From the NCBI RefSeq assembly GCF_054482595.1, contig NZ_CM137008.1: DNA of 64,000 nucleotides; one strand, written 5' to 3'. This document shows positions 1 through 28,817 of the stretch, one piece after another; position 1 is the first letter of the stretch, and every line of letters starts with the position of its first letter. The position numbers were made by a program, and so were the translations under genes. The notes under the pieces were generated by a model. The model had not been told where the DNA came from. It ran no database searches and saw only the letters and a list, made by a program, of their open reading frames with translations.

Positions 1-732
1 TGGATCGCGCTTTTCACTTATATGGTGATGAGTGCGGTGATGCGTTCTCCACACGCCAGTGGTTTAAATCAAACCTTGCAGCACTACACTACTGAACATA
101 ACTCTATTGCTGATACTTTTAATTTGTCTGTGTGGCCGTTGGTTGCCGTTTTGCTGGTGATAACGCTCTGGGTGGTGATGAAAGAGTTGAAGAAGCCAAA
201 ACTCAAAGTCGCGACCTTACCGCCGCGCCGAACCGGGATCGCTCATATTCTGTTTGAAAAACGCTGGCATCCCTTTGTCACTGCTGTACTCATCGGTTTG
301 ATTGCGCTTTTAGCCTGGCCCCTGAGTGAAGCAACCGGACGCATGTTTGGGTTAGGAATCACTTCCCCAACGGCCAATATTCTGCAATTTCTGGTCGCGG
401 GTGACGTGAAATACATTAACTGGGGCGTTTTCCTGGTGTTAGGGATCTTCGTGGGGTCATTTATTGCAGCCAAAGGGAGCCGTGAGTTCCGCGTTCGCGC
501 AGCTGATGCACAAACAACATTACGTAGCGGGTTAGGTGGTGTACTGATGGGCTTCGGTGCCAGTATTGCAGGTGGTTGCTCTATCGGTAATGGACTGGTT
601 ATGACTGCAATGATGACCTGGCAGGGCTGGGTTGGCCTTGTATTTATGATTCTCGGTGTCTGGACTGCGTCCTGGCTTGTGTATGTTCGACCGCAGCGTA
701 AGGCGCGACTGGCGACTGCTGCGGCAAATTAA
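1..732 (+). CDS. yeeE: YeeE/TsuA-type thiosulfate/sulfur transporter, C-terminal part (5' end outside window)
   Basis: ORF 22..732 in frame from position 1; multi-TM protein with GGCSIG motif; followed by yeeD as in E. coli. Confidence 0.8.
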   Translation, partial: WIALFTYMVMSAVMRSPHASGLNQTLQHYTTEHNSIADTFNLSVWPLVAVLLVITLWVVMKELKKPKLKVATLPPRRTGIAHILFEKRWHPFVTAVLIGLIALLAWPLSEATGRMFGLGITSPTANILQFLVAGDVKYINWGVFLVLGIFVGSFIAAKGSREFRVRAADAQTTLRSGLGGVLMGFGASIAGGCSIGNGLVMTAMMTWQGWVGLVFMILGVWTASWLVYVRPQRKARLATAAAN

Positions 733-745
733 GTAAGGTGTAAAG

Positions 746-973
746 ATGGCGATTAAAAAGCTGGATGTGGTGACGCAGGTCTGTCCGTTTCCACTCATAG
801 AAGCAAAAGCAGCACTGGCAGAAATGACCAGCGGCGATGAGTTGGTAATTGAGTTTGATTGCACCCAGGCAACAGAAGCAATCCCACAATGGGCGGCAGA
901 AGAAGGACATGCCATCACCGATTATCAGCAGATTGGCGATGCTGCGTGGAGCATCACCGTTCAAAAAGCCTGA
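746..973 (+). CDS. yeeD: TusA-like sulfurtransferase YeeD
   Basis: 75 aa, CPFP motif (VCPFPLIEAK) typical of TusA family; adjacent to yeeE. Confidence 0.85.
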   Translation: MAIKKLDVVTQVCPFPLIEAKAALAEMTSGDELVIEFDCTQATEAIPQWAAEEGHAITDYQQIGDAAWSITVQKA

Positions 974-984
974 CCCAACATTGT

Positions 985-1008
985 CCTCCGCCGTATCAGC
1001 GGCGGAGG
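985..1008. terminator. Hairpin between convergent yeeD and sbcB, putative bidirectional terminator
   Basis: Inverted repeat cctccgccg / cggcggagg with 6-nt loop between two convergent stop codons. Confidence 0.5.
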
Positions 1009-1015
1009 CTTCAAA

Positions 1016-2443
1016 CTAGACAATCTCTTCCGCGTACTGCCAAAGCGCTTTTAACAGCGCCACTTTTTCTTTATCGTCGGCATACTGCTGCGCCAGCATC
1101 TGAATCTCTTCTGCATAGCCTTGTAAAAACTCGGGTGTGAATACCTGGCGGCGGTGCTCCAGCCAGCGTTGCTGCTCGGCATAATCCAGCGTCCCCGGGA
1201 AGTTGCGCGCCCGATAATTGAACAACAGCTTTTCAATCCGTTTATCGACAAAAGTGATATCCAGTGCCGGTAAATTACGCGGCTCGGTTTCCAGCACAAT
1301 TTTCATTGCTGCACGATCGGCGTCACTGAAAAAGCCGTTATAAAGCTGTGCATCCACGTTATCTGAAGGCGTAAACGGTTCGGCTTCCGCGAATATCGCC
1401 ACCACTTTTTCGCGCACTTGCGGATTTTCACGCAGAATTTTCAGGTTATCGAGGCAATGCTGACGATTAATTCCCAGTCGGTCGGCATCTTCCGGGCGTA
1501 GCGTATTCGCCTGGGCCAGCACCGGACATTTATTGATGTGCACCAGCTTAACCGGAACGGCGGCGTTATCGCCAAGATCGGTTTTTGCGGTATATAAACG
1601 CTCGCGCAATGTGTCGCTATCCAGTTCCAGTAATGGCGAAATGTCTCCTGCCAAATCCACCATAATTACGGCATTGCGATTTTCAGGATGCCACGCCAGC
1701 GGTGCCACCCAGCTGGTGTTGCCGCGCCATGCCCCAAACATTCCGGAAACGTGCACCAGGGGTTTCATCTGCGGAACATCAATCAACGCCATCAGTTTGT
1801 GTTTATTACGATGGGTAAAGAGATAATCAAACAGGCGTGGCTGACGCGTTTTTACCAGCTTTGCCATCGCAATAGTGGCGTACACATCAGCCATCGCATC
1901 GTGGGCGTTGCTATGTTCAATACCATTCGCTTTGGTTAAATGCTCAAGGCGAAAGCTCGGTAGACCGTCATCATTTTCAGGCCAGTTTATTCCTTCCGGG
2001 CGCAGGGCATAACAGGCACGCATAACATCCAGTAAATCCCAGCGCGAGTTATCATGCTGCCAGCTCCAGGCGTAAGGATCGTAGAAATTACGATAAAAAA
2101 CGTTGCGTGTGACTTCGTCGTCGAAACGCACATTGTTGTAGCCCAGAATACAGGTCTTCGGTACGGTAAAAAGCGAGTGAATACGGGCGGCAAACGCGGC
2201 TTCGTTTTCTCCTTTCGACCGTGCTTCCTGCGGGGTAATACCGGTAATTAATACTGCTCCAGGCTGGGGTAAATAGTCATCAGCGGGCTTGCAGTAAAAG
2301 ACTTCGGGTTCGCCGATGACATTGAATTCGCTATCGGTGCGAATGGCTGCGAACTGTGCAGGGCGATCTAACGCGGGGTGCGTGCCAAAGGTTTCGTAAT
2401 CGTGAAACAAAAAGGTAGATTGTTGCTTACCGTCATTCATCAT
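1016..2443 (-). CDS. sbcB: Exodeoxyribonuclease I
   Basis: 475 aa from internal start MMNDGKQQSTFLFHDYETFG (track ORF 1016..2515 has 24 extra N-terminal codons); exonuclease I sequence recognised. Confidence 0.93.
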   Translation of the reverse strand: MMNDGKQQSTFLFHDYETFGTHPALDRPAQFAAIRTDSEFNVIGEPEVFYCKPADDYLPQPGAVLITGITPQEARSKGENEAAFAARIHSLFTVPKTCILGYNNVRFDDEVTRNVFYRNFYDPYAWSWQHDNSRWDLLDVMRACYALRPEGINWPENDDGLPSFRLEHLTKANGIEHSNAHDAMADVYATIAMAKLVKTRQPRLFDYLFTHRNKHKLMALIDVPQMKPLVHVSGMFGAWRGNTSWVAPLAWHPENRNAVIMVDLAGDISPLLELDSDTLRERLYTAKTDLGDNAAVPVKLVHINKCPVLAQANTLRPEDADRLGINRQHCLDNLKILRENPQVREKVVAIFAEAEPFTPSDNVDAQLYNGFFSDADRAAMKIVLETEPRNLPALDITFVDKRIEKLLFNYRARNFPGTLDYAEQQRWLEHRRQVFTPEFLQGYAEEIQMLAQQYADDKEKVALLKALWQYAEEIV

Positions 2444-2645
2444 TAGGTTAAATCCGTTATTTCTGCTGTCTGCCAGAGTATCAAATATCACCGTGCTAAT
2501 CAGCTTTAGCGCCACAATTTGGCAGCGAGTGGCAACAGATCATGTCAGATAAAAATGAGAGGGTAGTCACATTTTCTTGCACTTTATTCCAGCCAGTTCA
2601 TAAGTATTTCCGTAAAAAGAACAGCTATTTGAAACTCCTGAGGGT

Positions 2646-3818
2646 TTGCTGTTGAAACGCCGTCTTATTATTGCTGCTTCTTTGTTCGTTTTTAACTTAT
2701 CGTCTGGTTTTGCGGCGGAAAACATTCCTTTTTCACCTCAGCCTCCAGAGATTCATGCCGGGTCCTGGGTATTGATGGATTACACCACCGGTCAGATCCT
2801 CACCGCGGGTAATGAGCATCAACAGCGCAATCCCGCCAGCCTGACAAAGCTGATGACGGGTTATGTCGTGGATCGCGCTATCGATAGTCATCGCATTACG
2901 CCAGACGATATTGTCACCGTGGGGCGCGATGCGTGGGCGAAAGATAATCCGGTGTTTGTCGGTTCTTCACTGATGTTTTTGAAAGAGGGCGATCGCGTAT
3001 CGGTACGTGATTTAAGCCGTGGTTTAATTGTGGATTCCGGAAATGACGCTTGTGTTGCTCTGGCTGACTATATTGCCGGTGGGCAACGGCAGTTTGTTGA
3101 AATGATGAACAACTATGCCGAGAAGCTGCATCTCAAGGATACGCATTTTGAAACAGTGCATGGTCTGGATGCACCTGGCCAGCATAGCTCGGCTTATGAT
3201 TTAGCTGTGCTTTCTCGCGCTATCATCCACGGCGAGCCCGAGTTTTATCATATGTACAGTGAGAAAAGCCTCACCTGGAACGGTATCACTCAGCAAAACC
3301 GTAACGGGTTATTGTGGGATAAAACCATGAATGTTGACGGCCTGAAAACGGGTCATACTTCTGGTGCCGGGTTTAATCTCATTGCTTCGGCTGTAGATGG
3401 GCAGCGTCGTCTCATTGCAGTGGTAATGGGGGCTGACAGTGCAAAAGGTCGTGAGGAAGAGGCAAGAAAATTACTGCGTTGGGGGCAACAAAACTTTACT
3501 ACGGTGCAAATTTTGCACCGTGGGAAAAAGGTCGGAACGGAACGCATCTGGTATGGCGATAAAGAAAATATCGCCCTGGGAACGGAACAAGAGTTCTGGA
3601 TGGTGCTACCGAAAGCCGAAATTCCACATATCAAAGCCAAATATACCCTTGATGGTAAAGAACTCACCGCGCCAATTAGCGCCCATCAGCGGGTAGGGGA
3701 AATTGAACTTTATGACCGTGATAAACAGGTGGCGCACTGGCCGCTGGTTACCCTGGAATCTGTCGGGGAAGGCAGCATGTTTTCCCGGCTGAGTGATTAT
3801 TTCCACCATAAGGCCTGA
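2646..3818 (+). CDS. dacD: D-alanyl-D-alanine carboxypeptidase (PBP6b)
   Basis: 390 aa, signal peptide, SxxK (ASLTKLM), SGN and KTG motifs; synteny sbcB-dacD-sbmC. Confidence 0.9.
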   Translation: MLLKRRLIIAASLFVFNLSSGFAAENIPFSPQPPEIHAGSWVLMDYTTGQILTAGNEHQQRNPASLTKLMTGYVVDRAIDSHRITPDDIVTVGRDAWAKDNPVFVGSSLMFLKEGDRVSVRDLSRGLIVDSGNDACVALADYIAGGQRQFVEMMNNYAEKLHLKDTHFETVHGLDAPGQHSSAYDLAVLSRAIIHGEPEFYHMYSEKSLTWNGITQQNRNGLLWDKTMNVDGLKTGHTSGAGFNLIASAVDGQRRLIAVVMGADSAKGREEEARKLLRWGQQNFTTVQILHRGKKVGTERIWYGDKENIALGTEQEFWMVLPKAEIPHIKAKYTLDGKELTAPISAHQRVGEIELYDRDKQVAHWPLVTLESVGEGSMFSRLSDYFHHKA

Positions 3819-3936
3819 CCTTTCTTTTGCAGCAGACTGGCAGGAGTGCGAGTCTGCTCGCATAATCAACACTCATTCCTTGTGGTTTTAATATTGCAAC
3901 TATACTGTATATAAAAACAGTGTTAGTGGAGGCGTC

Positions 3937-4410
3937 ATGAACTACGAGATTAAGCAGGAAGATAAACGTACCGTTGCAGGTTTCCATCTTGTTGGCCCGT
4001 GGGAGCAGACGGTAAAGAAAGGTTTTGAGCAGTTGATGATGTGGATAGATAGCAAAAATATTGTGCCGAAGGAGTGGGTTGCTGTCTATTACGACAATCC
4101 GGATGAAACACCCGCCGAAAAATTACGCTGCGACACCGTCGTGACGGTACCGAATAACTTTACGCTCCCCGAAAACAGTGAGGGCGTCATTCTGACAGAA
4201 ATTTCAGGTGGTCAGTATGCGGTGGCGGTGGCTCGTGTAGTCGGTGATGATTTTGCTAAACCCTGGTATCAGTTCTTTAATAGCCTCTTGCAGGACAGTG
4301 CCTATGAAATGTTACCAAAGCCCTGCTTCGAGGTTTACTTGAACAATGGCGCGGAAGATGGGTACTGGGATATCGAAATGTATGTTGCGGTGCAGCCAAA
4401 ACATCACTAA
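3937..4410 (+). CDS. sbmC: DNA gyrase inhibitor SbmC/GyrI
   Basis: 157 aa, recognised SbmC sequence; synteny. Confidence 0.9.
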
Positions 4411-4607
4411 TTCATCTCAGGGCGGTGTGTTGACGCGAAGACCACTCTTTTTTTGAAAGTGAAAAGAGTAAGATGCGCCTTTCAATTTTTTCGCTCCTGC
4501 CGGGAAATTACACTGTTCCCGGTTTGTCCGTCGGATAATTCAGAGGCGCGCCTTCTGGCCGACAGATGAGTTATGAGCGCTTTTAATCTTCATTACGGAG
4601 TTTCTGT

Positions 4608-5666
4608 GTGCGTGCCGATAAGTCATTAAGCCCGTTTGAAATCCGGGTATACCGCCATTACCGCATTGTGCATGGTACTCGGGTCGCGCTGGCATTCCTG
4701 CTCACTTTTCTCATTATCCGCCTGTTTACTATCCCGGAAAGCACCTGGCCGCTGGTCACCATGGTGGTGATTATGGGGCCAATCTCGTTCTGGGGGAACG
4801 TTGTCCCTCGTGCCTTCGAACGTATTGGCGGTACGGTGTTGGGTTCGATTTTAGGTCTTATCGCTCTGCAACTGGAGTTAATTTCGTTACCGCTGATGTT
4901 AGTCTGGTGCGCGGCGGCGATGTTTCTTTGCGGTTGGCTGGCGCTGGGCAAGAAACCGTATCAAGGATTATTGATTGGGGTGACGCTGGCAATTGTTGTG
5001 GGTTCCCCGACAGGTGAAATTGATACGGCGTTATGGCGAAGCGGCGATGTGATCCTCGGCTCTTTACTGGCAATGTTGTTTACCGGTATCTGGCCACAAC
5101 GCGCGTTCATCCACTGGCGCATTCAACTGGCGAAAAGTCTGACCGAGTATAATCGGGTCTATCAATCGGCATTCTCACCGAACTTACTCGAACGCCCACG
5201 TCTGGAAAGCCATCTACAAAAACTGCTGACCGATGCCGTGAAAATGCGTGGGCTGATTGCGCCCGCCAGCAAAGAAACCCGTATTCCAAAATCGATATAT
5301 GAAGGTATCCAGACCATTAATCGCAATCTGGTTTGTATGCTGGAGTTGCAAATCAATGCATACTGGGCCACGCGCCCCAGCCATTTCGTGTTATTGAACG
5401 CGCAAAAACTTCGTGATACCCAGCACATGATGCAGCAAATACTGCTGAGCCTTGTTCATGCGCTGTACGAAGGTAATCCGCAGCCGGTTTTTGCCAATAC
5501 GGAAAAATTGAACGATGCTGTGGAAGAGCTGCGTCAGTTGCTGAATAACCACCATGACCTGAAGGTTGTGGAAACACCAATCTATGGTTATGTGTGGCTG
5601 AACATGGAAACGGCACATCAGCTTGAGTTGCTATCGAGTCTGATTTGCCGGGCCTTGCGCAAATAA
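4608..5666 (+). CDS. yeeA: Inner membrane protein YeeA (FUSC-like)
   Basis: 352 aa, GTG start, N-terminal TM helices; synteny with sbmC and yeeX. Confidence 0.85.
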   Translation: MRADKSLSPFEIRVYRHYRIVHGTRVALAFLLTFLIIRLFTIPESTWPLVTMVVIMGPISFWGNVVPRAFERIGGTVLGSILGLIALQLELISLPLMLVWCAAAMFLCGWLALGKKPYQGLLIGVTLAIVVGSPTGEIDTALWRSGDVILGSLLAMLFTGIWPQRAFIHWRIQLAKSLTEYNRVYQSAFSPNLLERPRLESHLQKLLTDAVKMRGLIAPASKETRIPKSIYEGIQTINRNLVCMLELQINAYWATRPSHFVLLNAQKLRDTQHMMQQILLSLVHALYEGNPQPVFANTEKLNDAVEELRQLLNNHHDLKVVETPIYGYVWLNMETAHQLELLSSLICRALRK

Positions 5667-5837
5667 TTCCTGAACTTCAGAATCATCTTGCTGCTGCTTC
5701 GATTCAGCAAGGATAAAGGGTATGATAGTGAAAAGGGATAAAAGCATTGTCATCTGCGGCAGCTATGAGTAATGTTGGCCCTAACGAATAGCGGTTGCTT
5801 AAACGAATCCGACTCTCACATTATCAGGGGTATAAAA

Positions 5838-6167
5838 ATGGAAACTACCAAGCCTTCATTCCAGGACGTACTGGAATTTGTTCGTCTGTTCCGTCGTAAG
5901 AACAAACTGCAACGTGAAATTCAGGACGTTGAGAAAAAGATCCGTGACAACCAGAAGCGCGTCCTGTTGCTGGACAACCTGAGCGATTACATCAAGCCAG
6001 GGATGAGCGTTGAAGCAATCCAGGGCATCATCGCCAGCATGAAAGGTGACTATGAAGATCGCGTTGACGATTACATCATCAAAAATGCCGAGCTCTCCAA
6101 AGAACGCCGCGATATCTCCAAAAAGCTGAAAGCTATGGGCGAAATGAAAAACGGCGAAGCGAAGTAA
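5838..6167 (+). CDS. yeeX: UPF0265 protein YeeX
   Basis: 109 aa from internal ATG ([14 protein letters not shown]...), track ORF 5772..6167 is N-terminally extended. Confidence 0.85.
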
Positions 6168-6184
6168 TTCCTGTTTTATTCAAT

Positions 6185-6205
6185 GAGGGTTGCCCGGCAA
6201 CCCTC
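6185..6205. other. Hairpin downstream of yeeX (possible terminator)
   Basis: Perfect inverted repeat gagggttgcc / ggcaaccctc; no clear T-tract. Confidence 0.35.
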
Positions 6206-6267
6206 AGTGCTCATTGATTCTTATCTGTGTATCACCGTCATCATTCTCATCTGAGAACCTATCGAAA

Positions 6268-6480
6268 TTAGCGACAGCCTTCTTCTGTATGCAGCAAGGC
6301 AAAAACTTCTGTAACTCCATTGTTATTAACCGCACTGGTTACTAACACGTTGTGCGCTCCAGCTTCCCGTAACCAACATTTCACCAAAGATGTTTGTTCC
6401 ATACTGGCTAAATCTGCTTTGGTTACTACTCCAATGACCGGGTGATTCATGGCCCGGTAGGGCGTTTTTACCTCTAATTC
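6268..6480 (-). pseudogene. EutP/PduV-type GTPase C-terminal fragment (yoeF-like remnant)
   Basis: C-terminal part of track ORF 6268..6624 (...NHPVIGVVTKADLA...) resembles EutP/PduV C-terminus; no N-terminal G-domain present. Confidence 0.4.
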
Positions 6481-6690
6481 CTGCTTCAGCGCTGAGATTC
6501 CTGCTTGTTGCCGGAAAAGCAGGCACCTGCCGTCTGAACGGTATCGATCCGGAAGCGTATCTGCGCCATATTCTGAGCATACTGCCGGAATGGCCCTCCA
6601 ACCGTGTTGACGAACTCCTGCCATGGAACGTAGTTCTCACCAATAAATAAGCGTCAATACGGTGCTCCGTTGACGCTTACTTTAATCCGT
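6480..6690 (+). mobile_element. IS66-family remnant: 3' end of transposase (TnpC) plus terminal inverted repeat
   Basis: Translation ...CRLNGIDPEAYLRHILSILPEWPSNRVDELLPWNVVLTNK* is a typical IS66 TnpC C-terminus; followed by hairpin-like terminal sequence ending cgcttac. Confidence 0.6.
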
Positions 6691-7064
6691 TTTCTGAGCT
6701 TAGATTTTTCTGTTCCTACCCAGACCGTGGATTTGGAATTCATTTTTTGTCAGGTCAATGCTAATCGTTAAAACGGCCATAACGCACCTCCACTGGAAGG
6801 TTTATCAGTAATATCCTACCGTTGCTTCATGGTCGGGGCGTCCATTCCATTATTATCGGTTTTCCTTTCTGTTTATAAATGAAAACGCCAGCTGTATTCA
6901 GGCTGGCGTCAGGGGAAATGAAGCCTGTTGAGTGAGATTCACCGGTTCTGGTGCAGAAGCTGCAGATGGCGCAGGGTAAGGACATCTTCTCTTGCCTGCT
7001 TAATACAGGACAACAGTGCTGTTTCTGTGGTTAATGGCACTATACCCTGCATCACTGCATTGTC

Positions 7065-7259
7065 TTACAGCAACTGGTGAGGGCTGGCATAAGTTGCCGG
7101 TGTTTCGGTAGAGTCACGGTCATCCACCACGCGGAGTGAATAACCGTTTTCAGCGGCCTTATTAATCAGTTCAGTGATATTAACACCATCAATGTCAACG
7201 ACAATGTGCCCCATATCCAGCGCCTGTACGTTAACGCTGTCGGCTTCCAGTGTCATCAT
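7065..7259 (-). CDS. yeeW: YeeW-like small protein of CP4-44-type islands
   Basis: 64 aa ORF immediately downstream of toxin gene, as in CP4-44. Confidence 0.55.
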   Translation of the reverse strand: MMTLEADSVNVQALDMGHIVVDIDGVNITELINKAAENGYSLRVVDDRDSTETPATYASPHQLL

Positions 7260-7629
7260 TTCGCCTCCGGATACTTACCCAGGGTAATGTTATTTACCGT
7301 TCTGTAATTGTCGCGGGTCATCAGGCCGGTCGCCCTGCGAGCCCGGAGGATATCGATGCTGTTTATTAACTGAGAGCGGGTACAGGCGCTGAATCCCGGC
7401 TGGTCGGTAGCACCAGCGCGTATTTTTCCACGAGAAAGTTCACCGCATCACACAGTGAAATGCCTGCCTCAATATGCTGCTCAATCACACGTTCATCGGC
7501 AAAAGGTGTGTCATTCTGTGTGAGGCCATAGTGCTGGTCCAGCAGTCGGGACAGCAGTATCTGCCAGATTTCAACAGGAGACGGGCGAGAACTGGCCGCC
7601 TGCCCGGGTAATACAGGTAATGTTTTCAT
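7256..7629 (-). pseudogene. cbtA: CbtA/YeeV-family type IV toxin, frameshifted
   Basis: Track ORF 7366..7629 matches CbtA for residues 1-73 then diverges; canonical C-terminus ([17 protein letters not shown]...YPEAK) is encoded in another frame, consistent with a 1-nt deletion. Confidence 0.7.
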
Positions 7630-7717
7630 ACTGAAGATTTTCCTGATATGCAGATATAAAAATGGAAAAGTGGCGTGGTGAAAACACCAGGCCGTAGCAG
7701 AAGGCTATTCTGGAGAG

Positions 7718-8086
7718 TTAATTTTTCATTTCGGGCGTCGGATAAACAGCCAGATAAACGTAACCACAACTGCTGAGGGTATCGGCTTTGCAGGTCAGCC
7801 CTTTTGCATACAGCGTGACGGTATGCTGATGGCGGGGATTCAGTTCACCGCTGGTGAGCATGAGTTCCAGTTGTTTCATCAGCAGCGGAAAGGCCTGGTC
7901 CAGGTGGTACGCATCTGCATCGCTGAACAGGCCTCTGATACCGGCGCGGTCGGCAAGGTAATGCAACCGGTTACCCTCCTGCACCAGACGTGCCCCGAAA
8001 CAGGGCGTCACGGTGCAGGGCAGCCCCCACCAGGGGCGGTCGTGATTGTCGTCGGGAAGTGTTGTCCCGGGGAGTGTGTCTGACAC
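7718..8086 (-). CDS. cbeA: CbeA/YeeU-family antitoxin
   Basis: 122 aa, recognised YeeU/CbeA sequence, directly upstream of cbtA. Confidence 0.85.
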   Translation of the reverse strand: MSDTLPGTTLPDDNHDRPWWGLPCTVTPCFGARLVQEGNRLHYLADRAGIRGLFSDADAYHLDQAFPLLMKQLELMLTSGELNPRHQHTVTLYAKGLTCKADTLSSCGYVYLAVYPTPEMKN

Positions 8087-8159
8087 GATAAAATCCTTAC
8101 AGAAAATCGGCTAAGAATGGTCCGGTAGTGGCGATAATTCTGCTCATCAGAATTCCCAC

Positions 8160-8381
8160 TCAGTTCAGGGTGACGCTCATCAGCCGGACATACGGACCAA
8201 AACTGTCCTTACGGCGTTCAGCAAACACGGCCAGCACACCGGGAATATCCTGCACTTCACGACCGGTATACGCTTCAGCACTGCCGTGCCAGCGGTATTT
8301 ACCGGTACAGAACGGAAAAAGACGGGATGTCGGATGTTGTTGGTGAATACGCATGGCTTCACCACGGGTGATAATTTTCAT
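8160..8381 (-). CDS. yeeT: DUF987 protein YeeT
   Basis: 73 aa, conserved island backbone gene upstream of antitoxin. Confidence 0.8.
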   Translation of the reverse strand: MKIITRGEAMRIHQQHPTSRLFPFCTGKYRWHGSAEAYTGREVQDIPGVLAVFAERRKDSFGPYVRLMSVTLN

Positions 8382-8443
8382 AATGGGATACCTCTGAAGA
8401 CAGAAGATAAAAGTGAAAACAGGTGTGATGTGGTTGTGAAGGG

Positions 8444-8935
8444 TTAAAGCAGACCATGTTCGGCAAAGGAGAAAACCTGGTTGCCACCGACTATCAGATG
8501 GTCCGGCACCCGGATATCCACCAGGCCCAGTGCCTGTACCAGACGTTCGGTGATAAGCCGGTCTGCCTTACTGGGTGTGACTTCACCGGACGGGTGATTG
8601 TGTGCCAGTACCACGGCAGCGGCATTGTGGTACAGGGCGCGTTTAATCACTTCCCGGGGATGGACTTCCGTGCGGTTGATGGTGCCGGTGAAGAGGGTTT
8701 CACCGGCAATCAGCTGATTCTGGTTGTTCAGATACAGCACCCGGAATTCTTCACGCTCCAGTCCCGCCATGTTCAGAATCAGCCATTCCCGTGCTGCACG
8801 GGTGGAGGTGAAGGCCACGCCGGGTTCATGAAGATGGCGGTCCAGGGTTTTCAGGGCCCGTTGAATGAGGCTGCGCTCGCCGGGCGTCATCTCTCCGGGC
8901 AGAAAGGAAAGTTGTTGCATTGTGCTTCTCTCCAT
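8444..8935 (-). CDS. yeeS: RadC-like JAB-domain protein (YeeS family)
   Basis: HNHPSG JAMM motif; alternative start at Met6 (MQQLSFLPGEM). Confidence 0.85.
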   Translation of the reverse strand: MERSTMQQLSFLPGEMTPGERSLIQRALKTLDRHLHEPGVAFTSTRAAREWLILNMAGLEREEFRVLYLNNQNQLIAGETLFTGTINRTEVHPREVIKRALYHNAAAVVLAHNHPSGEVTPSKADRLITERLVQALGLVDIRVPDHLIVGGNQVFSFAEHGLL

Positions 8936-11770: not shown

Positions 11771-12841
11771 TTATTTAATCCGGGCCATCGCGTTTCTCAG
11801 TGCCAAATCTGCCTCTTCCGTTATATCCAGGCTTTTCTGCAATACCGCCTCTGACCGGGTCAGTGCCTGACGTGCTGCCAGCGGTTTCCGGATATGCTCC
11901 ATCGCCAGCATCGTGTCTTCATAGCCCTGCTGACGCCAGGCGTCGGTATGTGCCGATGTAAAACTGAGCAGACCGCCGCTGTTGCCACCATCACCTGCAT
12001 ATTTCAGCCTTTTCCGGGGACGGATCTCAAGGATTGTGGTGTCCGGAAAAGCCTGGCGATCCCATAAAGAACCGTCACTCAGATGCGTCACAATCACCAT
12101 ATTGCATCCGGCATCGACCAGAGGCGTCACAGGGGTATTTCCCTGCATATTTCGCCATCCTCCCATACCACCATCACCGAACATTGTCCCCTGAACCTCA
12201 CGGGGACGGAACAGCAGGGGCAGCGCGGCTGACGCAAGCAGAGCCTCTTTCTGCTGTCCGCGGGGCAGGCTCTGGATATGCTGAAAAACGGCGTTTTTCG
12301 TGGTTCCGACACCCAGTTCAGCACGAATGCAGTCAATAATATCCTGCATGCCCCCTTCTGTGGGGTACAGCGACACATACAGCGGTAGCCCGTCTGCCAG
12401 AGCATCAGTATCAAGATAATGATCCATCAGCGCTGTCAGGGGCTCATCTGACAACAACGGCTGAGCCATCAGATTGTCAAACCCGTTGATTGTCGATATA
12501 TGGCGAAGAAGCGTCGTAAGCAGTGCTCCTGCACGTCCGGGGATCTGGCAGAGGTTCATTGCCTGGAACAATTTTTTCAGCAATGAAAAGTAAACCAATC
12601 TGTTTACCGACAGCACCTGATTATTCCCCAGATGATCCCAGAGCGCCTCCAGGCGTACGGCAGCTTCTGACAGATCGGGAGAGGCCGCGATAATGGCACC
12701 ATTGAATGCGCCAATGCTGGCCCCTGAAACCATGCTGATCTGTGTACCACACTCTGCCAGTGCCTTAACCACTCCCGCCTGATAAGCGCCCACCGCCCCG
12801 CCACCGGACAGCACCAGCCCCGTTTTCATTTCTGTACTCAT
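11771..12841 (-). CDS. Patatin-like phospholipase
   Basis: GGGAVGAYQAG oxyanion-hole motif, GASIG (GxSxG) nucleophile, DGG motif (FGDGGMGG); start overlaps upstream stop (ATGA). Confidence 0.85.
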   Translation of the reverse strand: MSTEMKTGLVLSGGGAVGAYQAGVVKALAECGTQISMVSGASIGAFNGAIIAASPDLSEAAVRLEALWDHLGNNQVLSVNRLVYFSLLKKLFQAMNLCQIPGRAGALLTTLLRHISTINGFDNLMAQPLLSDEPLTALMDHYLDTDALADGLPLYVSLYPTEGGMQDIIDCIRAELGVGTTKNAVFQHIQSLPRGQQKEALLASAALPLLFRPREVQGTMFGDGGMGGWRNMQGNTPVTPLVDAGCNMVIVTHLSDGSLWDRQAFPDTTILEIRPRKRLKYAGDGGNSGGLLSFTSAHTDAWRQQGYEDTMLAMEHIRKPLAARQALTRSEAVLQKSLDITEEADLALRNAMARIK

Positions 12842-13743
12842 GCAGCCCCCTTCTGAAATATTTCATCGACCATACTTTCAGAGAGGCGTTCTGCAGAGCA
12901 GAGGCGAGGCATGCGAACCGGTAAGTGTTCTGCAGCCTGCGTGGTTGACCAGATCACCGGATGCTGCTCTTCACTGCACCAGTCTCCCAGCCAGTTAATC
13001 GCGTCATGCCACTCGTTATCTGCCTGCTCCCGGCCCTGACCACCAAGCCAGTCCAGAGTGTTCAGACGCACGGTTGCACTACCGCCACTCTCCTGTGCCA
13101 TCTGCGTTAATGCTTTATGTCTGAGAATATCCAGTAGCTGGTTAACCTGGCCTGTTTCGCCCTGACGTATCACATCACCAAACGCGCCCCAGCGAAGCTC
13201 TTCAAGTGCCACATAACAACGTCCGGCAGGGGAAAATGACGCATATCGCCCGGCGCTCCACCATGAGAATATCTGCTCAAGATGTAACTGCGCCCGCTGA
13301 ACCTGGTCAACACGGTGGAGTTTTTCTTCAAGATGATTCAGTTTATGGTGAACCTGATCGGCCAGGGTGAGTAACTGCTCCCGCGTATCTGCGGAATAAT
13401 GCGCCAGCCTGGCTGTATCACTGACCAGTGAACTGACCCTGTCGTTTACCCGGGTAATCGCGTAGTTTGTGGTGGCAAGTGACGTTGTCATCTCCGTCAG
13501 CCAGCGCAGGGACGCCTCAACGCCCTGTGCAAGCGACGCATTGATGGCATTCTGCCGTGCAGCGCCTTCGCCGGTCAGCCCCTCTTTTAAACGCCGGAAG
13601 AACGTGCGCTCTCCGGCCGTGCGGATATGCTCCTGTGCAACATCGATTCCGTTTGCGAAATCAACCACAAATTTTTCAGGAAGACAGGTGAGTACCTGAC
13701 ATACCCGGTTATCAGCAATTTGTTGAATAAATGGTGAAGTCAC
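12838..13743 (-). CDS. Hypothetical coiled-coil protein, middle gene of operon
   Basis: 301 aa, helical/heptad-rich, no recognised domain; ATGA overlaps with both neighbours. Confidence 0.7.
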   Translation of the reverse strand: MTSPFIQQIADNRVCQVLTCLPEKFVVDFANGIDVAQEHIRTAGERTFFRRLKEGLTGEGAARQNAINASLAQGVEASLRWLTEMTTSLATTNYAITRVNDRVSSLVSDTARLAHYSADTREQLLTLADQVHHKLNHLEEKLHRVDQVQRAQLHLEQIFSWWSAGRYASFSPAGRCYVALEELRWGAFGDVIRQGETGQVNQLLDILRHKALTQMAQESGGSATVRLNTLDWLGGQGREQADNEWHDAINWLGDWCSEEQHPVIWSTTQAAEHLPVRMPRLCSAERLSESMVDEIFQKGAA

Positions 13744-16136
13744 AGCATTGTCTCCAGCTCTTCCCTCAGCGCCTTACTGTCAGTAATGAGCTCAGGAACC
13801 CTTTCATTTAATGCCTGAAGTCGCCCGGTAAGTCGTTCCTGCGCCTGCTGATCGCGTTTATGATCCTCAGAGCTCTGAATCAGCGTGTTACGCAGTTGTT
13901 CAACTTTCTCCCTGAATGCGCAGAAAAAGGCATCGATTTCCTGGCGGACGGGCTGGTTAATATCCTGCTCAATGGATGCCTGCAGCTCCCCGAAATATGC
14001 CCGGGTCAGTGACATAACTTCCTCTCTGACCTTGTTGATATTGATCACGCTGCGACTCACATCCTCGTCATAGTTTTCCCAGCCCAGGTCACTGGTGCCA
14101 AACCATCGACAAACGGTTCCCCATACGCCACTCTGCCGACGGCGACGGGTGACGGTCTCCGTTCTTTCCTCCATAAGCGCACTCAGATTTATTTTTACCG
14201 CGAGCCGGGTCTGTAACTGGCTGACTGCCGGAAAACTGATTTTTACGGTAAAGCCCTCATCCTCCAGGCGGGCATTGATGCGACCGGCAATGTTTTCTGT
14301 GGCGTACAGGGCCGTGCCACGAAAACCTGTTTCAATCCCGCTGACGATTTTCTCCAGCTCAGGCCGGAACTGTGCTTCAGCCTCACGGTGCAGGCTGGTC
14401 ACGGTCGATTCGATTTGCGTCATCAGTTCAAGGGCTTCCCTGCGATCACTGAATTTTATTTCGGGGCTGTCCGGGGCAAAATCTCGTTTCCTGTAATCCT
14501 CCCGGCCCTGGTTGTTGATACCGGACCATTGAGAAATTTTCCCCCATAATCCGGACTGAGACCTTCGTTGTTCTGCGTCTTCTTCCTCCAGCATTTGCTG
14601 TTCTTTGCGTTTACCGCTTCTGAAATAGTCATTCAGCTCCTCTTCCAGTGAGGTGCAGACCCCCGTCAGTAATTCCCGGGTTTTAGTATCGATCTCCTCC
14701 ATGGCCATTCTGACATCAGTGGTCATCTGCTCCTGACAGTCCGCGATTTCCCGGATATCCGCAAGCAGGCTGGTGATATGCGACTGCAGTGACTGAATGC
14801 TTTGCTGTAGCCCCTGATGGCGTAACAACAGGTATTCACTGATATTTTCTGCATTCTGCATCAGTTTTGCGGCGGCAGAGTCAACCGCCAGTGCCGCAGC
14901 TCTGGAATGTGAGCTCTGTATGACTTCCGTTATCAGTTGATCGATAAGTGAGCCTTCCCACAGGTCTGTCGCCCCTTCAGTTGCCAGTTCACTGTCTTTA
15001 CAGACGTATTCTTTTTTCATGCAACCGAAGGCACCTCTGATAAAATCATCGACCCAGGCTTCATCAACAGGAAGGGTTCCGTTTTTCCGTAACTCATGAA
15101 GCGCACGGTTAGCCAGGTATGCCTGGCGTGAGGATCCGGGATAAACGCGGGAGGCGGGCAGCACATCGCTGTTCAGCATTGCCGGAACTTTCTGGCGTAC
15201 GGCATCTGCCCCATCGCCATTGCGGTCTTTCTCATCAAATTTATTGACCAGTACAAACAGGCGGCCGGCTGATACGTCAGCAATGGCATTAAGCTCTTTA
15301 CGGACGTCTTCATCCGCTTTTGAGTTCATCTGGGTGTAATCCATCACAGCCAGAACCGCAGAGGCTTTCTGCAGTTGATCCCGCATCATCACTTCCATCT
15401 GCGGTTGTCCGGCCTCATTAGGGCCGGGGGTATCCAGCAGTGTGAGTGTTCCCTGGCATGCATCCATCCCCACCAGATGGCTGAATTCCACGTCGATCAC
15501 CGGCAGTTTCTGCACTTCTGCGTATTCATCAAAAGGAAATTCAGTCCCCATTGCCGCAGCAAGACGAACCAGATCGTTTAACGATGCCAGTCCGGTAAAG
15601 ATTTCCTCCTCCCCGTGGTATTCATTTTTGAGCCAGCCATCATCCGTCAGAATATCCAGCAGTTCGCGGGTATCCCCGGTTTGCTGCAGGGTCTGTGCGA
15701 CCTGCTGTCCTGCCGGGGTGGCGAGTTTTTCCTGCAGTGTGATTAATAAATTGCGGACAGGCTGAATATGTTCCAGATGGAGAACCGGCTCAGTTTTTCC
15801 GGGAACGTGGCGGATGAGCGTCGGTACAGAGGTCATGGGGCGGTTACGGTTAGGCAGAATTTCCTGCCCCACAATGGCATTGATGGTGGTTGATTTGCCT
15901 GCTTTCATCGTGCCGACAACAGCCAGCACCATCTCCCTGCGGGCGGTTTTGATTTGTTCGCCCTCCAGCTCCTCAATTCTTTTCAGTGCTTTCTGTTTAT
16001 CAAAAAGCAGTCTGTTTTCGTTCTTACTGTCAGATAACACATCTGGCTCCTCAACCATTTGCCGGAGCAGATTAATGTTCAGTTGCAAAAGTCGGTCGGC
16101 TTCATCACAAAGCAGGGCGATGTTCTTTTCGTGCAT
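13740..16136 (-). CDS. Dynamin-like GTPase (bacterial dynamin family)
   Basis: 798 aa; G1 GTMKAGKST, G3 DTPG, G4 NKFD, long helical C-terminal region. Confidence 0.85.
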   Translation of the reverse strand: MHEKNIALLCDEADRLLQLNINLLRQMVEEPDVLSDSKNENRLLFDKQKALKRIEELEGEQIKTARREMVLAVVGTMKAGKSTTINAIVGQEILPNRNRPMTSVPTLIRHVPGKTEPVLHLEHIQPVRNLLITLQEKLATPAGQQVAQTLQQTGDTRELLDILTDDGWLKNEYHGEEEIFTGLASLNDLVRLAAAMGTEFPFDEYAEVQKLPVIDVEFSHLVGMDACQGTLTLLDTPGPNEAGQPQMEVMMRDQLQKASAVLAVMDYTQMNSKADEDVRKELNAIADVSAGRLFVLVNKFDEKDRNGDGADAVRQKVPAMLNSDVLPASRVYPGSSRQAYLANRALHELRKNGTLPVDEAWVDDFIRGAFGCMKKEYVCKDSELATEGATDLWEGSLIDQLITEVIQSSHSRAAALAVDSAAAKLMQNAENISEYLLLRHQGLQQSIQSLQSHITSLLADIREIADCQEQMTTDVRMAMEEIDTKTRELLTGVCTSLEEELNDYFRSGKRKEQQMLEEEDAEQRRSQSGLWGKISQWSGINNQGREDYRKRDFAPDSPEIKFSDRREALELMTQIESTVTSLHREAEAQFRPELEKIVSGIETGFRGTALYATENIAGRINARLEDEGFTVKISFPAVSQLQTRLAVKINLSALMEERTETVTRRRRQSGVWGTVCRWFGTSDLGWENYDEDVSRSVININKVREEVMSLTRAYFGELQASIEQDINQPVRQEIDAFFCAFREKVEQLRNTLIQSSEDHKRDQQAQERLTGRLQALNERVPELITDSKALREELETML

Positions 16137-16189
16137 TATTTAACCTTCCTAAGACGCATTTTCATGACAACCACGGAGGAGGTCATTCA

Positions 16190-16270
16190 CTACAAACGAT
16201 CGTTTATAACGATCGATATGATAGTAACGATCGATGTATTCTATTAACTTGAGAAACACAACGCAAGGGG
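16190..16270 (-). promoter_or_regulatory. Sigma70-like promoter followed by three clustered GATC sites (agn43-type Dam/OxyR switch candidate)
   Basis: On minus strand: -35 TTGCGT, 17-bp spacer, -10 TAGAAT, then GATC at about 16229, 16211 and 16198 within 35 bp; RBS aggaagg before dynamin ATG. Confidence 0.55.
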
Positions 16271-16353
16271 ACAACCCGGGTATGGCTGCGTTTGCATAGT
16301 GTTTTCATGGAGTTAAAAATCTGTAACAACAGCCTGGTACATCACCACCGGGT

Positions 16354-17265
16354 TCAGAAGAAAATCCAGTTCCATACCGCGCGGGCAACAGAGACCACCG
16401 AGTCACGGACGGCGCGCAGAACCGTGCGTGCAACAGAGGCAATGCAGACGCTCTCCGCCGTGTCAAATATCCGGTCCACCGCACCGGTAAACTGTTCACG
16501 GGCCTGAGACCGGACAGACTCCGTGCGCAGCTCGTCCTGCAGGCGGGTCATCAGGGGACTGGCGGCATGGTCGGGAAGTGCTGTCATGAGCGCACTGACC
16601 AGCGTATCCAGTTCCCAGCCGGTGCGGGCCGATACGGCAACAACCCGATGTACGGGCCGGAACAGACGGAATACCGCCTCCGTTTTTTCGCGAATGTTCT
16701 GTGCCTGTGCGGGAGAAGGCTGAATACCGGCCATATCCCATTCATGGCAGGGCTCCGTTTTATCGGCCTGCATCACCACAAACAGTACCCGCTGATGTCC
16801 CCGGTGCAGGATGTGTCGCCAGAAATACTCATCCACAGACAGGGCACGGTCATCGGCTTTAATCAGCCACAGTACCAGGTCCAGTTCGGGCAGAATGTCA
16901 CGGTACAGGGCTTCATACTCTGCATCCCTGTCCCGGCTCTCGCCCACCCCGGGCAGGTCAGTGATAACCATGCTGTGACCATGGCCATTCAGACGGAAGC
17001 GCTGCACTTCCCGGGTGCCGGCGTGAACATCACTGACCGGGGTGACCTCCCCCTGAAACAGCGCATTACAGAGTGAGGATTTACCGGCCCCGCTTTTCCC
17101 CATAATGCCAATCACGGGTTCGTGACTGGTGAGTTTGCGCAGATGTTCCAGGATGTGACGGGAAAGTGAGTAAGGCAGGGAGGAGAGCGGTTTTTCGATT
17201 GCCTCAATGGCATCAGACGGATTCATACATGTATTCCCGGTGAAAAAAGACAAAACCCCGCGCAC
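16354..17265 (-). CDS. yeeP: YfjP/YeeP-family GTPase
   Basis: P-loop GIMGKSGAGKSS, DLPG, recognised YfjP/YeeP-like sequence; alternative start at MNPSD (17226). Confidence 0.8.
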   Translation of the reverse strand: MRGVLSFFTGNTCMNPSDAIEAIEKPLSSLPYSLSRHILEHLRKLTSHEPVIGIMGKSGAGKSSLCNALFQGEVTPVSDVHAGTREVQRFRLNGHGHSMVITDLPGVGESRDRDAEYEALYRDILPELDLVLWLIKADDRALSVDEYFWRHILHRGHQRVLFVVMQADKTEPCHEWDMAGIQPSPAQAQNIREKTEAVFRLFRPVHRVVAVSARTGWELDTLVSALMTALPDHAASPLMTRLQDELRTESVRSQAREQFTGAVDRIFDTAESVCIASVARTVLRAVRDSVVSVARAVWNWIFF

Positions 17266-17309
17266 CGGAAAGGTGGCGGGGGATTCACGGAAATAATATC
17301 TGTCTGAAA

Positions 17310-18473
17310 TTATCTGGAATCGATTTGGCTGTTCTGCCTGGTTGCCACCAAATCATGGTACGCCTGCTCAATCATTTCATTCAGCAGTTTTTTTGGGAGG
17401 ACACCACGACTTCGGGCAATACTTTCAAGCTGTTTGTGGATTTTTCCGGACAGTTTCAGAGGGACGGAACCATCAGCACGTTCATCACGCCTTTTTTGTT
17501 GCTCCCGGGCACTTTTCAGCTCATCAAGAAGAATCGCTTTATGCTGAATCCTGGGGGCCTGGAAGGAGACCTGCGTAAACTTCGCTCTGTTCCGTCTGGG
17601 ATTACTTTCCAGTAAAAACTGTACCTGTTGCTCATTCCAGCCCTCCCAGTTATCAAACGTGGCGCAGGCAAACCAGTATTTCTGCTCCGGGGTAAGGGGA
17701 TTCAGCGGGGTTCCCACACACCGGACCTGCATGGCGTTCCATAACCAGTCACACTGTTCACTGTCCCTGCTGTCCACCCACGAAAAGGGGGAGGGGTAAT
17801 CATTGTTTATGCTGGCCCATTCAGAGAATACTGAGTTGATAATCGTCCTCGTAGCCTCTGGTCCGGATTTCAGCAGGTAACTGGAGCAGAACCATATAAT
17901 TTCACGGTAGATTTTATCCGGATGCACGGTGCGCATCGGCTTTTCTCTGGGACCGGCAATCTTCGGTTGCGATGGAAACCCCGTGGCAAACCGCAGATGT
18001 TCCGGGGGCATTCCTGAACGTTTTTCAGGAATGGGTGTGAGTCCTGCGTTTCTGGTCTTTTCCGCTTGTCCGGTATTGCCTCCGGCCGGAGTGTTGTCGG
18101 GAGTATCTTCCGGAGGCGAGGTGTTTTCATTAGTTGGGGGAACAACAGCAGAACTGTCCATCTCCGGAATGGGTTGAGGGGCATAATCACTGTGGTAGCC
18201 AGGGGAAAGCGTTAAGTCCCGAAGGGTGACATCAGGTTCCGGGCAGTGAGTGCCACCGGGAGTGAACGGGAGTTGTTGCTTTTGGGAGAAAAATGTATTG
18301 TGAATGCGGGTATACAGCTGGAACAGAAAAAAATAAGATGCCCGTGGTTCTTTTTTTAACCACTGTGTATATTCCTCTATGGCACCGAGCTGTTGTTTGT
18401 GCCGTTTTACAGCATCGATATACGGACAGCTGGTGCAGATATCATCCAGTTCCTTTCCCACAATACACCTCAC
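17310..18473 (-). CDS. Hypothetical protein with Pro/Thr-rich low-complexity linker
   Basis: 387 aa ORF upstream of GTPase on same strand; central stretch PPTNENTSPPEDTPDNTPAGGNTGQ; no recognised domain. Confidence 0.55.
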   Translation of the reverse strand: MRCIVGKELDDICTSCPYIDAVKRHKQQLGAIEEYTQWLKKEPRASYFFLFQLYTRIHNTFFSQKQQLPFTPGGTHCPEPDVTLRDLTLSPGYHSDYAPQPIPEMDSSAVVPPTNENTSPPEDTPDNTPAGGNTGQAEKTRNAGLTPIPEKRSGMPPEHLRFATGFPSQPKIAGPREKPMRTVHPDKIYREIIWFCSSYLLKSGPEATRTIINSVFSEWASINNDYPSPFSWVDSRDSEQCDWLWNAMQVRCVGTPLNPLTPEQKYWFACATFDNWEGWNEQQVQFLLESNPRRNRAKFTQVSFQAPRIQHKAILLDELKSAREQQKRRDERADGSVPLKLSGKIHKQLESIARSRGVLPKKLLNEMIEQAYHDLVATRQNSQIDSR

Positions 18474-19591
18474 CTGCTTTTCTCACATTTGCAGATTTTA
18501 AAAAAGCAAACAAAAACCTCCGTACATGATGTACAGAACAATCTACCAGGTAGTGGCGTCAGAAAACCTCCGGGCCGCCTGCACTTTCCGGAATGCGCCG
18601 GTTATGAAAAACCGGAAATTCAGTCTCTGTTGTAAGATGTACCCTCTGATACTACGTTTTCTCTGTGTATTTAACTCACTGTATTTATTGTCTTTTTAAG
18701 CTTGACTAATATTCTCCGGTCATAGTGTGCCGGATACACATCCCGTAAACTTCTCATTTTTATATAAAAATACCTGCACTCTCTTCAGCGCATCTGTCTC
18801 CTTTAAGTAAAAAATGTTTTTACGTATTGCTGTAAATTCATTTTAAATCAGTATATTACCTTGATATTGCTGTCTCCTGGTTTGATGCGTAATCGTTCTG
18901 CCTTTCTGGATGATTCTGGTGCTTCCGGGTGCATTCTCCTCTGCACATGCAACAGTTCGTCATCGCCACGCTCCCAAAAAGCATATAAAAACGAATCGAA
19001 TTTGATATTTTTTTCAATCGTTTTTCATAGGAATTTCGTAGGGTATTCTCCGCTATAACCTCCATATTTGCTGTCTTTTTCTTCATAAATCGTATGCAAT
19101 GTAGCCTGTCTGTCAAGACCTCTTCTCTGCTGTTGAGGAGACGATCTCATTTTTGGTCTTTTCCGGGAGAGAGGCTGTCAGATGAGCGAGCCGGATATAC
19201 TGTCAGAGGTACACCCCGTAGCAGACCTGTGCTCCCATTTCCGCGATCCGGAACCAACAACACCCTACGGTTAATACCATTTGAAGCGTCAGGTACTGCA
19301 GGAAGTTCCCCCCTGCGCGGACATCGGTTCCTGCCGACATCTCACAATACGGCCAGACTGTCATGCAGTAACACCCGCATGCGGTCTGCGGTTTTAAGCG
19401 CACTCTCCCGTTTTCAGTGCATCGATAATGCGTCATAGTAAGTCTGGGGGAAGTTACGGAATGCCTGTTAAGTGGTGCCGTGGGTGGAGACAGCTTACTT
19501 TTCTACAGCAACTGCAGTCATTCAGGATGATCAGGAGATATTCTGTCAATGTCACGATCCTGCCATTTTCGTACCCGCTAAGATACTTCCG

Positions 19592-21951
<2,360 letters not shown>

Positions 21952-22813
21952 TTTGTGGCCAGTCTTTCTGGCTGGCGGTTCAGGGGATGTTTTCTGGTTA
22001 TCGTGTACCACAAAGCAGGGATATTGCCCCGATAGTCACATTTCAGATTGATCGCGGTCTGAAGATGTGGCACTGAGGTAACGTGCTGGTGTCACTGGTA
22101 TTGCTGAAGTTATGGTTTTTCGGGGTCAGGTGAGCCTGTTGTGTGTATGCTTTTTGTTCAGGTCAGAGGGGGACTGTGTGGACAGCGGCTTTTGTCTCCG
22201 GGCATTCACGCCTGAACGATGAATGCGATTTTCAGCAATATTTGTCTTTGTGACACTCTCTGGTTGAGAAGCTAATGCGCGCCCCTGTTTCCACAGAGAA
22301 TGAGGCTTGCCATCAGCCGAAACATCAGTATTCCACGCCATACAGACGGCGCCTGACCATGTGCTGATGCAGGTAAAATGTTTCACTACAACTGTTCGGG
22401 TTGCTATGCAACGAAACAGCGATTCTCACGATCTTTAACTGCAACGTTTTTCCGCCTGAAAGCTGACTGCCTCCTGCTGAGGTGGGAGGCTATGATTCAG
22501 TGCGTTTATAGTCTCCGGGGTATGCATGTACCGGAGCATACCATTTCTGGTGGATAACAAGCCGGCACATTCAGACTGCAGTGAAGATGGAGGCACCTGG
22601 TTGTGAAGAACGTTTCTGCCCGTGGCTGCTTCGCATCATCAATGGTATTCATACCCGCTCAGAAATGACCGGGTGCTGAAGCCCTCCGTTATCGCGCAGT
22701 ATAATGACGTATATGATCTGTGGACGAGTGAGCGGCGTGCCTGATGTACGCCGCTATTACTGTATTTTACCACAGGGCTGGTTTTCTGCTGCCAGCCCTG
22801 TGGTTCTCAGACA

Positions 22814-23431
22814 TCAACTGTGAGCGGCATCAACCGATGTACGGTATGCCATAAGCACGTACTGATCCATCAGATTTGTCAGTGGTTCACTCTGACCCTG
22901 ACGTGCAATGATCCATTGCTCCAGATCTTTTTCTGATTTGTGTTTCAGGTTTTTCGTCCAGTCGTCAAGGCTGTTTCCGGTCATTAAGTCAAGCCAGCAG
23001 AGCCAGACCAGTTTGAGACGTAACTCCGTGCCGCCAAACTGACGGAAGAGGCTGATCAGTTTGTTTGCCAGAGAATGTTGCTTCAGGCGCTCACATTCAG
23101 ACAGCAGGATCCCTTCCAGCATCGGATGATGAACCAGCAGGTGTTCGCTGGTGCATAAATTCACCACCAGATCATCATCCAGGGACGGGGAGCTCCGTTT
23201 GTCCGGACCATAAATCAGCCGGTGCAGACTCTGGGGAACGATGGCAATCTCCGGTTTTTCGCCATTGAATGACACCCACCCGGGCGTCAGATTATGGAAA
23301 TAGTAGATATTCGGATGACACACGCCCCATGATACGGCGTGCCGGGTGAAGCCGGTCAGCCATTTCTGGTAGTTTTCATGGAGCAGCTCGTAACGGGTCT
23401 GATACTGTTGTTTCATTTTCATATTCCTCAC
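22814..23431 (-). CDS. Hypothetical protein (island backbone, downstream of alpA)
   Basis: 205 aa ORF, GTG start, no recognised domain. Confidence 0.5.
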   Translation of the reverse strand: MRNMKMKQQYQTRYELLHENYQKWLTGFTRHAVSWGVCHPNIYYFHNLTPGWVSFNGEKPEIAIVPQSLHRLIYGPDKRSSPSLDDDLVVNLCTSEHLLVHHPMLEGILLSECERLKQHSLANKLISLFRQFGGTELRLKLVWLCWLDLMTGNSLDDWTKNLKHKSEKDLEQWIIARQGQSEPLTNLMDQYVLMAYRTSVDAAHS

Positions 23432-28800: not shown

Positions 28801-28817
28801 CCACTTTTGCACTGTTC

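Follow-up and report, generated by a model that had tools for sequence, protein, structure and literature searches.

Intact IS66-family elements carry the genes tnpA, tnpB and tnpC between terminal inverted repeats. The reference used here is an intact, plasmid-borne ISEc23 (L007, 1128-3659), which spans 2,532 bp in the order tnpA-tnpB-tnpC, starts with GTAAGCG, ends with CGCTTAC and is flanked by the 8-bp target duplication AAAATACA; a second intact IS66-family copy (L002) likewise has an 8-bp target duplication, CATTCTCT. By the ISfinder convention, elements sharing about 95% nucleotide identity or more belong to the same IS species. The K-12 pseudogene yoeD (b4642), at the edge of the cryptic prophage CP4-44, is the ortholog of one of the relics described below, and a literature search returned it solely as a pseudogene. 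The pdu/cbi cluster has reportedly been lost from most Escherichia coli strains, leaving a remnant beside tmaR/yeeX, as Lawrence and Roth are said to have described in 1996.

We analysed a stretch of 64,000 nucleotides (the window), which is part of an E. coli chromosome and covers a CP4-44-type genomic island region, and scanned 5,426 complete E. coli genomes and a collection of 72,556 plasmids. The gene order runs tsuA, sbcB, dacD, sbmC, yeeA and tmaR, followed by the CP4-44-type island (yeeW, cbtA/cbeA, yeeT, yeeS, antirestriction, DUF932, a dynamin-like cluster and the GTPase gene yeeP), a small metabolic islet and a large variable metabolic island. Strain WP4-S18-ESBL-08 is collinear with the window over at least 10.5-64 kb, and ATCC 11775 over positions 1-34740 apart from one IS difference. 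K-12 is collinear over positions 1-8896 (98.7% identity) and lacks positions 16907-34536 (17.6 kb), its yeeP pseudogene stopping at the 16906 equivalent and being joined directly to the 34537 equivalent, near the right edge of an IS911-like relic.

Several features of the island stand apart from its IS66 content. An intact IS100 of 1,954 bp, with istA/istB and the 5-bp duplication TTTGT, occupies positions 19998-21951; it is absent from ATCC 11775, where an IS150 lies close by, and from strain 165, where that stretch contains an intact IS66-family element instead. The cargo at 11771-17226 (minus strand) encodes a patatin-like phospholipase, an RdcB-like protein, a 798-aa dynamin-family protein and a GTPase; PADLOC recognised no defence system in the island cargo, and matches to LeoBC/LeoA (Eleos) were weak (E = 1e-4 to 9e-9).

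The IS66 content of the window consists of three pieces of 159, 438 and 677 bp:

6522-6680, plus strand: IS66 fragment A, equivalent to ISEc23 nt 2374-2532 (96.9% identity)
33340-33777, minus strand: IS66 fragment B, equivalent to ISEc23 nt 2081-2532 (452 nt-equivalent, 83.2% identity)
45078-45754, minus strand: IS66 fragment C, equivalent to ISEc23 nt 262-942 (83.9% identity), truncated on both sides

A tblastn search of the whole 64-kb window detected no further IS66-family sequence. The alignment to ISEc23, a check proposed by the initial annotation, confirmed kinship to IS66 and placed the truncation points at nt 2374 in A and nt 2081 in B. The same annotation had drawn the limits of all three pieces differently. 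It had assigned the 3' end of an IS66 transposase gene and a terminal repeat to 6480-6690, of which 6522-6680 is IS66 and the first 42 bases (6480-6521) are not; its diverged second copy at 33340-33500 is real and reaches about 280 bp further, to 33777; and its tnpB remnant at 45174-45506 does encode IS66 TnpB, within a 677-bp piece in which part of tnpA and the beginning of tnpC are preserved as well. The IS66 TnpC C-terminal domain (PF13817, DDE_Tnp_IS66_C) is present in A (E = 7.7e-16) and in B (E = 2.3e-14), which share 86% and 81% amino-acid identity, respectively, with ISEc23 TnpC in tblastn. C alone holds tnpA and tnpB sequence, with neither gene represented in A or B. Both A and B end at an IS66 terminus, at 6680 and 33340 respectively, with the sequence ...ACGCTTAC (...CGCTTAC); past this point, the likeness to intact elements ends, as does that of A to B. 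None of the three fragments includes a left end or a complete gene, and the window contains fragments only, with no complete mobile IS66 having both ends and intact tnpA, tnpB and tnpC. At the species level, A alone belongs to ISEc23 (96.9% over 159 bp), and B and C, at 83.2% and 83.9%, fall below the 95% threshold. All three pieces are already annotated as RefSeq pseudogenes, as a 'transposase domain-containing protein' (A), an 'IS66 family transposase' at 33427-33787 (B) and tnpB at 45208-45506 (C) in the PGAP annotation, and A is in addition a named K-12 pseudogene. They are inert relics, none of which can move or act today. The three are very probably separate IS66 relics left by independent events, with the inverted layout of A and B coincidental and no single IS66-driven rearrangement behind them.

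Fragment B is an IS66-family right end next to the PfkB metabolic islet and stems from a different element than A, probably an older one. Its terminus is located 108 bp upstream of the islet's PfkB kinase gene, and its reading frame has decayed through a TGG-to-TAA stop and frameshifts. Apart from its own orthologs, we found no intact relative above 83-85% identity in the 5,426 complete E. coli genomes. The element is cut at about nt 2080, where another IS relic abuts it:

33779-34514, plus strand: IS911-like (IS3-family) relic, the left inverted repeat of which abuts the truncated inner end of B

L010 contains an intact IS3-family element whose left 330 bp match this relic at 90% identity; the left inverted repeat sequence of the relic, TGGCATACTGAATTTGGCCACC, begins at 33782. 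All examined records with B share its inner end (33777/33778). In total, about 1,950 records contain B, approximately 483 with the IS911-like relic and approximately 1,473 without it (AR_452-type genomes among the latter), at the same breakpoint. Further right, positions 34573-34741 (minus strand) hold a relic that resembles the left end of IS2 (74% similarity); past approximately 34741, ATCC 11775 and AR_452 diverge from the window, so that this IS2-like relic marks the border of the variable metabolic island.

Fragment C, located further right in the variable metabolic island, comes from the interior of an IS66-family element as divergent as that of B. It comprises tnpA codons 60-141 (the 3' two thirds of the gene), a frameshifted tnpB and the first approximately 54 nt of tnpC, and carries stops and frameshifts, as B does. 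Matches to TnpA and TnpB were obtained by tblastn, and the open reading frame at 45174-45506 matches the Pfam TnpB_IS66 profile (E = 2.5e-16). No intact relative above approximately 85% identity was detected in the 5,426 E. coli genomes (best 84%) or the 72,556 plasmids.

Among the alternatives to fully separate origins, the one that fares best links B to C: it is possible, although we lean against it, that they belong together as one copy or two copies of a single, now-extinct IS66-family species, which would have arrived with foreign metabolic DNA and later been split by insertions and deletions. The two lie on the same minus strand in collinear order, with C (nt 262-942) upstream of B (nt 2081-2532) and zero overlap, but the 11.3 kb between them is occupied by unrelated genes (aspA, dcu, the dgo operon and IS200). 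Their equal divergence of 83-84% identity from ISEc23, IS682 and ISEc47, and their shared lack of an intact relative above approximately 85% in the E. coli genomes or the plasmid collection, are in keeping with a common species, although we found no intact reference that would establish one. The two co-occur on plasmid pMTY9754_NA1, yet about 1,950 records contain B and only 207 contain C, and B sits in a conserved part of the locus whereas C sits in a variable island missing from ATCC 11775 and AR_452.

The order of segments at the tmaR-proximal edge of the island, around fragment A, is as follows:

6268-6450, minus strand: 3' remnant of pduV (last 60 codons), a chromosomal gene fused to the island
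6451-6521, minus strand: fragment of DUF4942 (about codons 38-62), an island backbone gene
6522-6650, plus strand: tnpC part of fragment A (last 42 codons and stop)
about 6655-6680, plus strand: right terminal inverted repeat of fragment A, ending at the IS66 terminus
6681-6855, minus strand: 5' relic of an IS110-family element (approximately 75 nt of leader and the first 33 codons; start codon at 6780-6778)

Window positions 6200-7400 match K-12 at 98.9% identity over 1,201 bp. Fragment A is 96-99% identical to living ISEc23-type copies, the best matches being plasmid-borne IS66 copies (99.4%). The pduV remnant matches positions 86-142 of the 143-position Pfam PduV-EutP profile (E = 2e-11). 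The adjoining 71 bp (6451-6521), which are neither IS66 nor pduV, are 77.5% identical to the 5' part of a DUF4942 pseudogene in a paralogous island (L015, 2998-3077), and their equivalent in strains FAM21845 and 361 runs on into the remaining DUF4942 5' end. In the same two strains, the equivalent of 6681-6855 is part of a continuous 1.37-kb IS110-family element spanned by a PGAP transposase pseudogene. A paralogous island that lacks the IS110 element, where homology to the window resumes at 6852, sets the limits of that element and identifies 6451-6521 as DUF4942. The pduV–DUF4942 junction has a 5-bp microhomology, TTCAT, and microhomology is absent from the DUF4942–IS66 deletion junction (6521/6522). 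The terminus of A at 6680 corresponds to a clean empty site, ...GGGAACG followed directly by TTTAATCC....

An open reading frame that overlaps A, at 6268-6624 (minus strand), is K-12 yoeF (118 aa). It is a three-part chimera of the antisense tnpC end of IS66, the DUF4942 fragment and the PduV C-terminus; IS66-free strains instead have a 121-aa open reading frame in which the DUF4942 N-terminus is fused in frame to the PduV C-terminus.

Comparison of the locus with related genomes, also suggested by the initial annotation, showed that the species has at least three alleles here. One keeps the pdu operon intact, another has the island with the IS110 element, and in the third the island contains the IS66 relic. 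Of the 5,426 genomes, 3,199 have the window-type allele with both its junctions, K-12, O157:H7, ST131 and ATCC 11775 among them, and an IS66-free allele occupies the same locus in 583. In FAM21845 and 361, which represent the latter, the pduV–DUF4942 junction is identical and the match to the window extends up to 6521 and starts again from 6681; between these points lie the rest of the DUF4942 5' end and the 1.37-kb IS110-family element, and no IS66. The IS110-family element of FAM21845 is also interrupted by an IS100 with its own 5-bp duplication. The IS66-free and A-bearing alleles share this locus-specific junction and its flanks at 97-99% identity. In MS14386 (L014, 6869-14051, from the equivalent of window position 6268), an intact pdu operon (pduV, U, T, S, Q, P, O...) adjoins tmaR, and homology to the window ends at 6450.

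These alleles suggest the following history for A. A CP4-44-type island would have been fused to a truncated pduV, via the 5-bp microhomology, in the E. coli lineage, with an IS110-family element located between the island genes DUF4942 and DUF957. The IS110 transposase gene may next have received an ISEc23-type IS66 at codon 34, the right end of the IS66 facing DUF957. Subsequently, a non-homologous local deletion of approximately 3.7 kb would have removed IS66 nt 1-2373, approximately 1.2 kb of the IS110 element and the first approximately 37 DUF4942 codons, leaving 159 bp of IS66 in what is now the majority allele of E. coli, with yoeD as its K-12 form. This history is shown in part, and in part it is one that we infer, the intermediate with a full-length IS66 belonging to the second part: no genome was found with such an element at the 6680/6681 site. 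Its direction, with the IS110-type allele ancestral and the window-type allele derived, rests on parsimony, and the IS110-type allele could in principle have been rebuilt by gene conversion from a paralogous island.

Since one endpoint of the deletion lies inside IS66, the element suffered the deletion and was not its cause. Similarly, the loss of pdu is joined to DUF4942 and not to IS66, which is therefore not implicated in that loss. The proposal of the initial annotation that IS66 mediated rearrangement or deletion in the history of this region thus holds insofar as deletions shaped the fragments, but the roles are reversed, with IS66 the target of these events.

A paralogous island carries an ISEc23 copy at its end (L009) that we considered as a candidate for the same insertion as A, the initial blastn match between the two reaching 14 bp past the terminus. 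The terminus of the L009 copy abuts the equivalent of window position 6849, a different site, and we therefore rejected both this candidate and the idea that several island copies had inherited A. The L009 copy is an independent, recent insertion (99.5% identical to ISEc23).

A could instead have been truncated already when the island arrived, the deletion having taken place in a donor or at another locus. Related islands do reside at several loci, with IS66-family insertions near the same end (L009 and L010), and exchange between island copies is plausible. We nevertheless regard this as unlikely: both alleles share the pduV–DUF4942 junction and its flanks at 97-99% identity, for which a change in place is the simplest account, and the IS66 of L009 is an independent insertion at a different site. 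Truncation of A in place, by the local deletion, is thus the reading that we retain.

Several other ISs lie in or against the 3' ends of IS66-family elements. ISEc45, of the IS110 family, occupies the same tnpC position (ISEc23 nt ~2329-2337) in an ISEc23 copy (L009, 2494-3944) and in the fragment B of strain EC-107 (L018, 3193-5965); ISEc12 (IS21 family) has inserted inside the right inverted repeat of A in strain 1450 (L017, 5268-8100), at about window position 6667; and both the window and L010 have an IS911-like element bordering IS66 tnpC. We tentatively raise the idea, which we consider doubtful, that IS66-family 3' ends are preferred landing sites for other ISs, so that their relics could seed IS graveyards at island borders. 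The family of ISEc45 includes sequence-specific (bridge-RNA-guided) members, and its position could reflect a programmed target inside IS66. The ISEc45 of EC-107 comes with a conversion tract, however, and may be a copy of a single insertion.

We now turn to the relationship between A and B. The initial annotation was correct that these are right-end fragments in inverted orientation about 26.6 kb apart, as their termini face each other at a distance of 26,659 bp. Within the window, 6522-6683 aligns with 33498-33337 of the opposite strand at 87.7% identity across 162 bp (E = 8e-55), and an ungapped comparison gives 88.05% over 159 bp, the longest stretch without a mismatch being 41 bp. The two truncation points are internal to IS66 sequence and not at its ends, and the 8 bp outside the termini differ, TTTAATCC at A and CTTTTCTC at B.

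The two fragments had also been taken to bracket the whole CP4-44-like island. The backbone continues outside both: DUF4942 lies to the left of A, and beyond B on the right, positions 34537-34727 share homology with an interior part of K-12 CP4-44. Since the island extends beyond A as well as B, the two do not delimit it. A and B are moreover distributed independently, K-12 having A and lacking B.

With its 41-bp identical run, the A/B pair is physically capable of recombination. We searched for the product with an inversion-junction query composed of positions 6400-6680 followed by the reverse complement of 33100-33339, counting as a hit any match with at least 80% coverage; none of the 5,426 genomes contains the junction. 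The best partial matches led to a mosaic copy of B in EC-107, in which the approximately 100 bp adjacent to ISEc45 are ISEc23-like and the terminus is B-like. This mosaic is a conversion tract from an ISEc23::ISEc45 copy and not an A/B exchange; homologous exchange between IS66 copies thus does occur at B, though not between A and B.

Taken as a single proposition, the view that one IS66 element left A and B as relics of two inverted copies, whose transposition or recombination inverted, delivered or trimmed the 26.6-kb segment of island and islet, is very improbable and largely refuted: the opposite orientation with both right termini facing the segment, the 88% identity with its exact run and the gene conversion at B in EC-107 would fit it, but A is 97-99% ISEc23-like and B only 83% identical to any intact element, both truncations fall inside the IS, the 3.7-kb local deletion seen against the IS66-free allele accounts for that of A, and the differing flanks, the K-12 pattern, the missing inversion junction and the backbone outside both fragments all speak against it. 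A link to an IS66-driven rearrangement of the segment is not supported. Independent IS66 relics in a coincidentally inverted layout therefore remain our favoured interpretation.

The window contains a far better substrate for inversion than the IS66 pair, namely an inverted duplication of the aspartate ammonia-lyase gene (34775-36225, minus strand, and 55627-57077, plus strand; 1,451 bp, 99.0% identity), which brackets 19.4 kb. Most of 33027-54592 also occurs, at approximately 99.5% identity, on four large E. coli plasmids, of which pMTY9754_NA1 (L011, IncFIB/IncI) is an example; the shared part encompasses fragments B and C, aspA, dcu, the dgo operon, pepT and dcuC, and the pMTY9754_NA1 version has an intact dgoT, no IS200 and an IS1 nearby. 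Rfam models gave no match at or beside the IS66 pieces. Elsewhere, they identified group II intron domains beside a 148-aa maturase open reading frame (51589-51877, minus strand), STnc490 at a degenerate IS200 (40284-40407, plus strand) and an isrC-like RNA inside ISEc31 (46049-46171, plus strand).

The overall import of these findings is small, as they concern ordinary, passive IS relics at an IS-rich island border. What our analysis adds is the recognition that yoeD comprises the final 159 bp of an ISEc23-type element, which lies nested within an IS110-family relic, and a corrected tmaR-proximal island edge consisting of a pduV remnant, a DUF4942 fragment, an IS66 right end and an IS110 relic. 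The junctions, together with the IS66-free and pdu-intact alleles, provide handy typing markers for this hypervariable locus. The locus also offers a caution, in that two similar IS relics should not be read as a functional pair.

Compared with known systems, the layout of A and B shares with composite transposons, and with inversions between inverted ISs, the presence of two related IS sequences in inverted orientation flanking a gene-bearing segment. A composite transposon would require the same IS twice, with usable ends on each copy, plus a source of transposase, whereas A and B are 88% identical, belong to different species with different flanks and retain a single right end each, in a window without an intact IS66 transposase. 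Relative to ISEc23, A amounts to 6% of the element, including the right inverted repeat; B and C align collinearly with it but, at 83-84% identity, would count as a different IS species. As in the reported loss of pdu/cbi, a pduV remnant (6268-6450) adjoins the island here, and some E. coli strains keep the whole operon; the pduV breakpoint of the window meets DUF4942 by a 5-bp microhomology and not the IS66 fragment. Fragment A finds its direct counterpart in K-12 yoeD, which lies in the same place, between yeeW and tmaR, and differs from it in nothing material.
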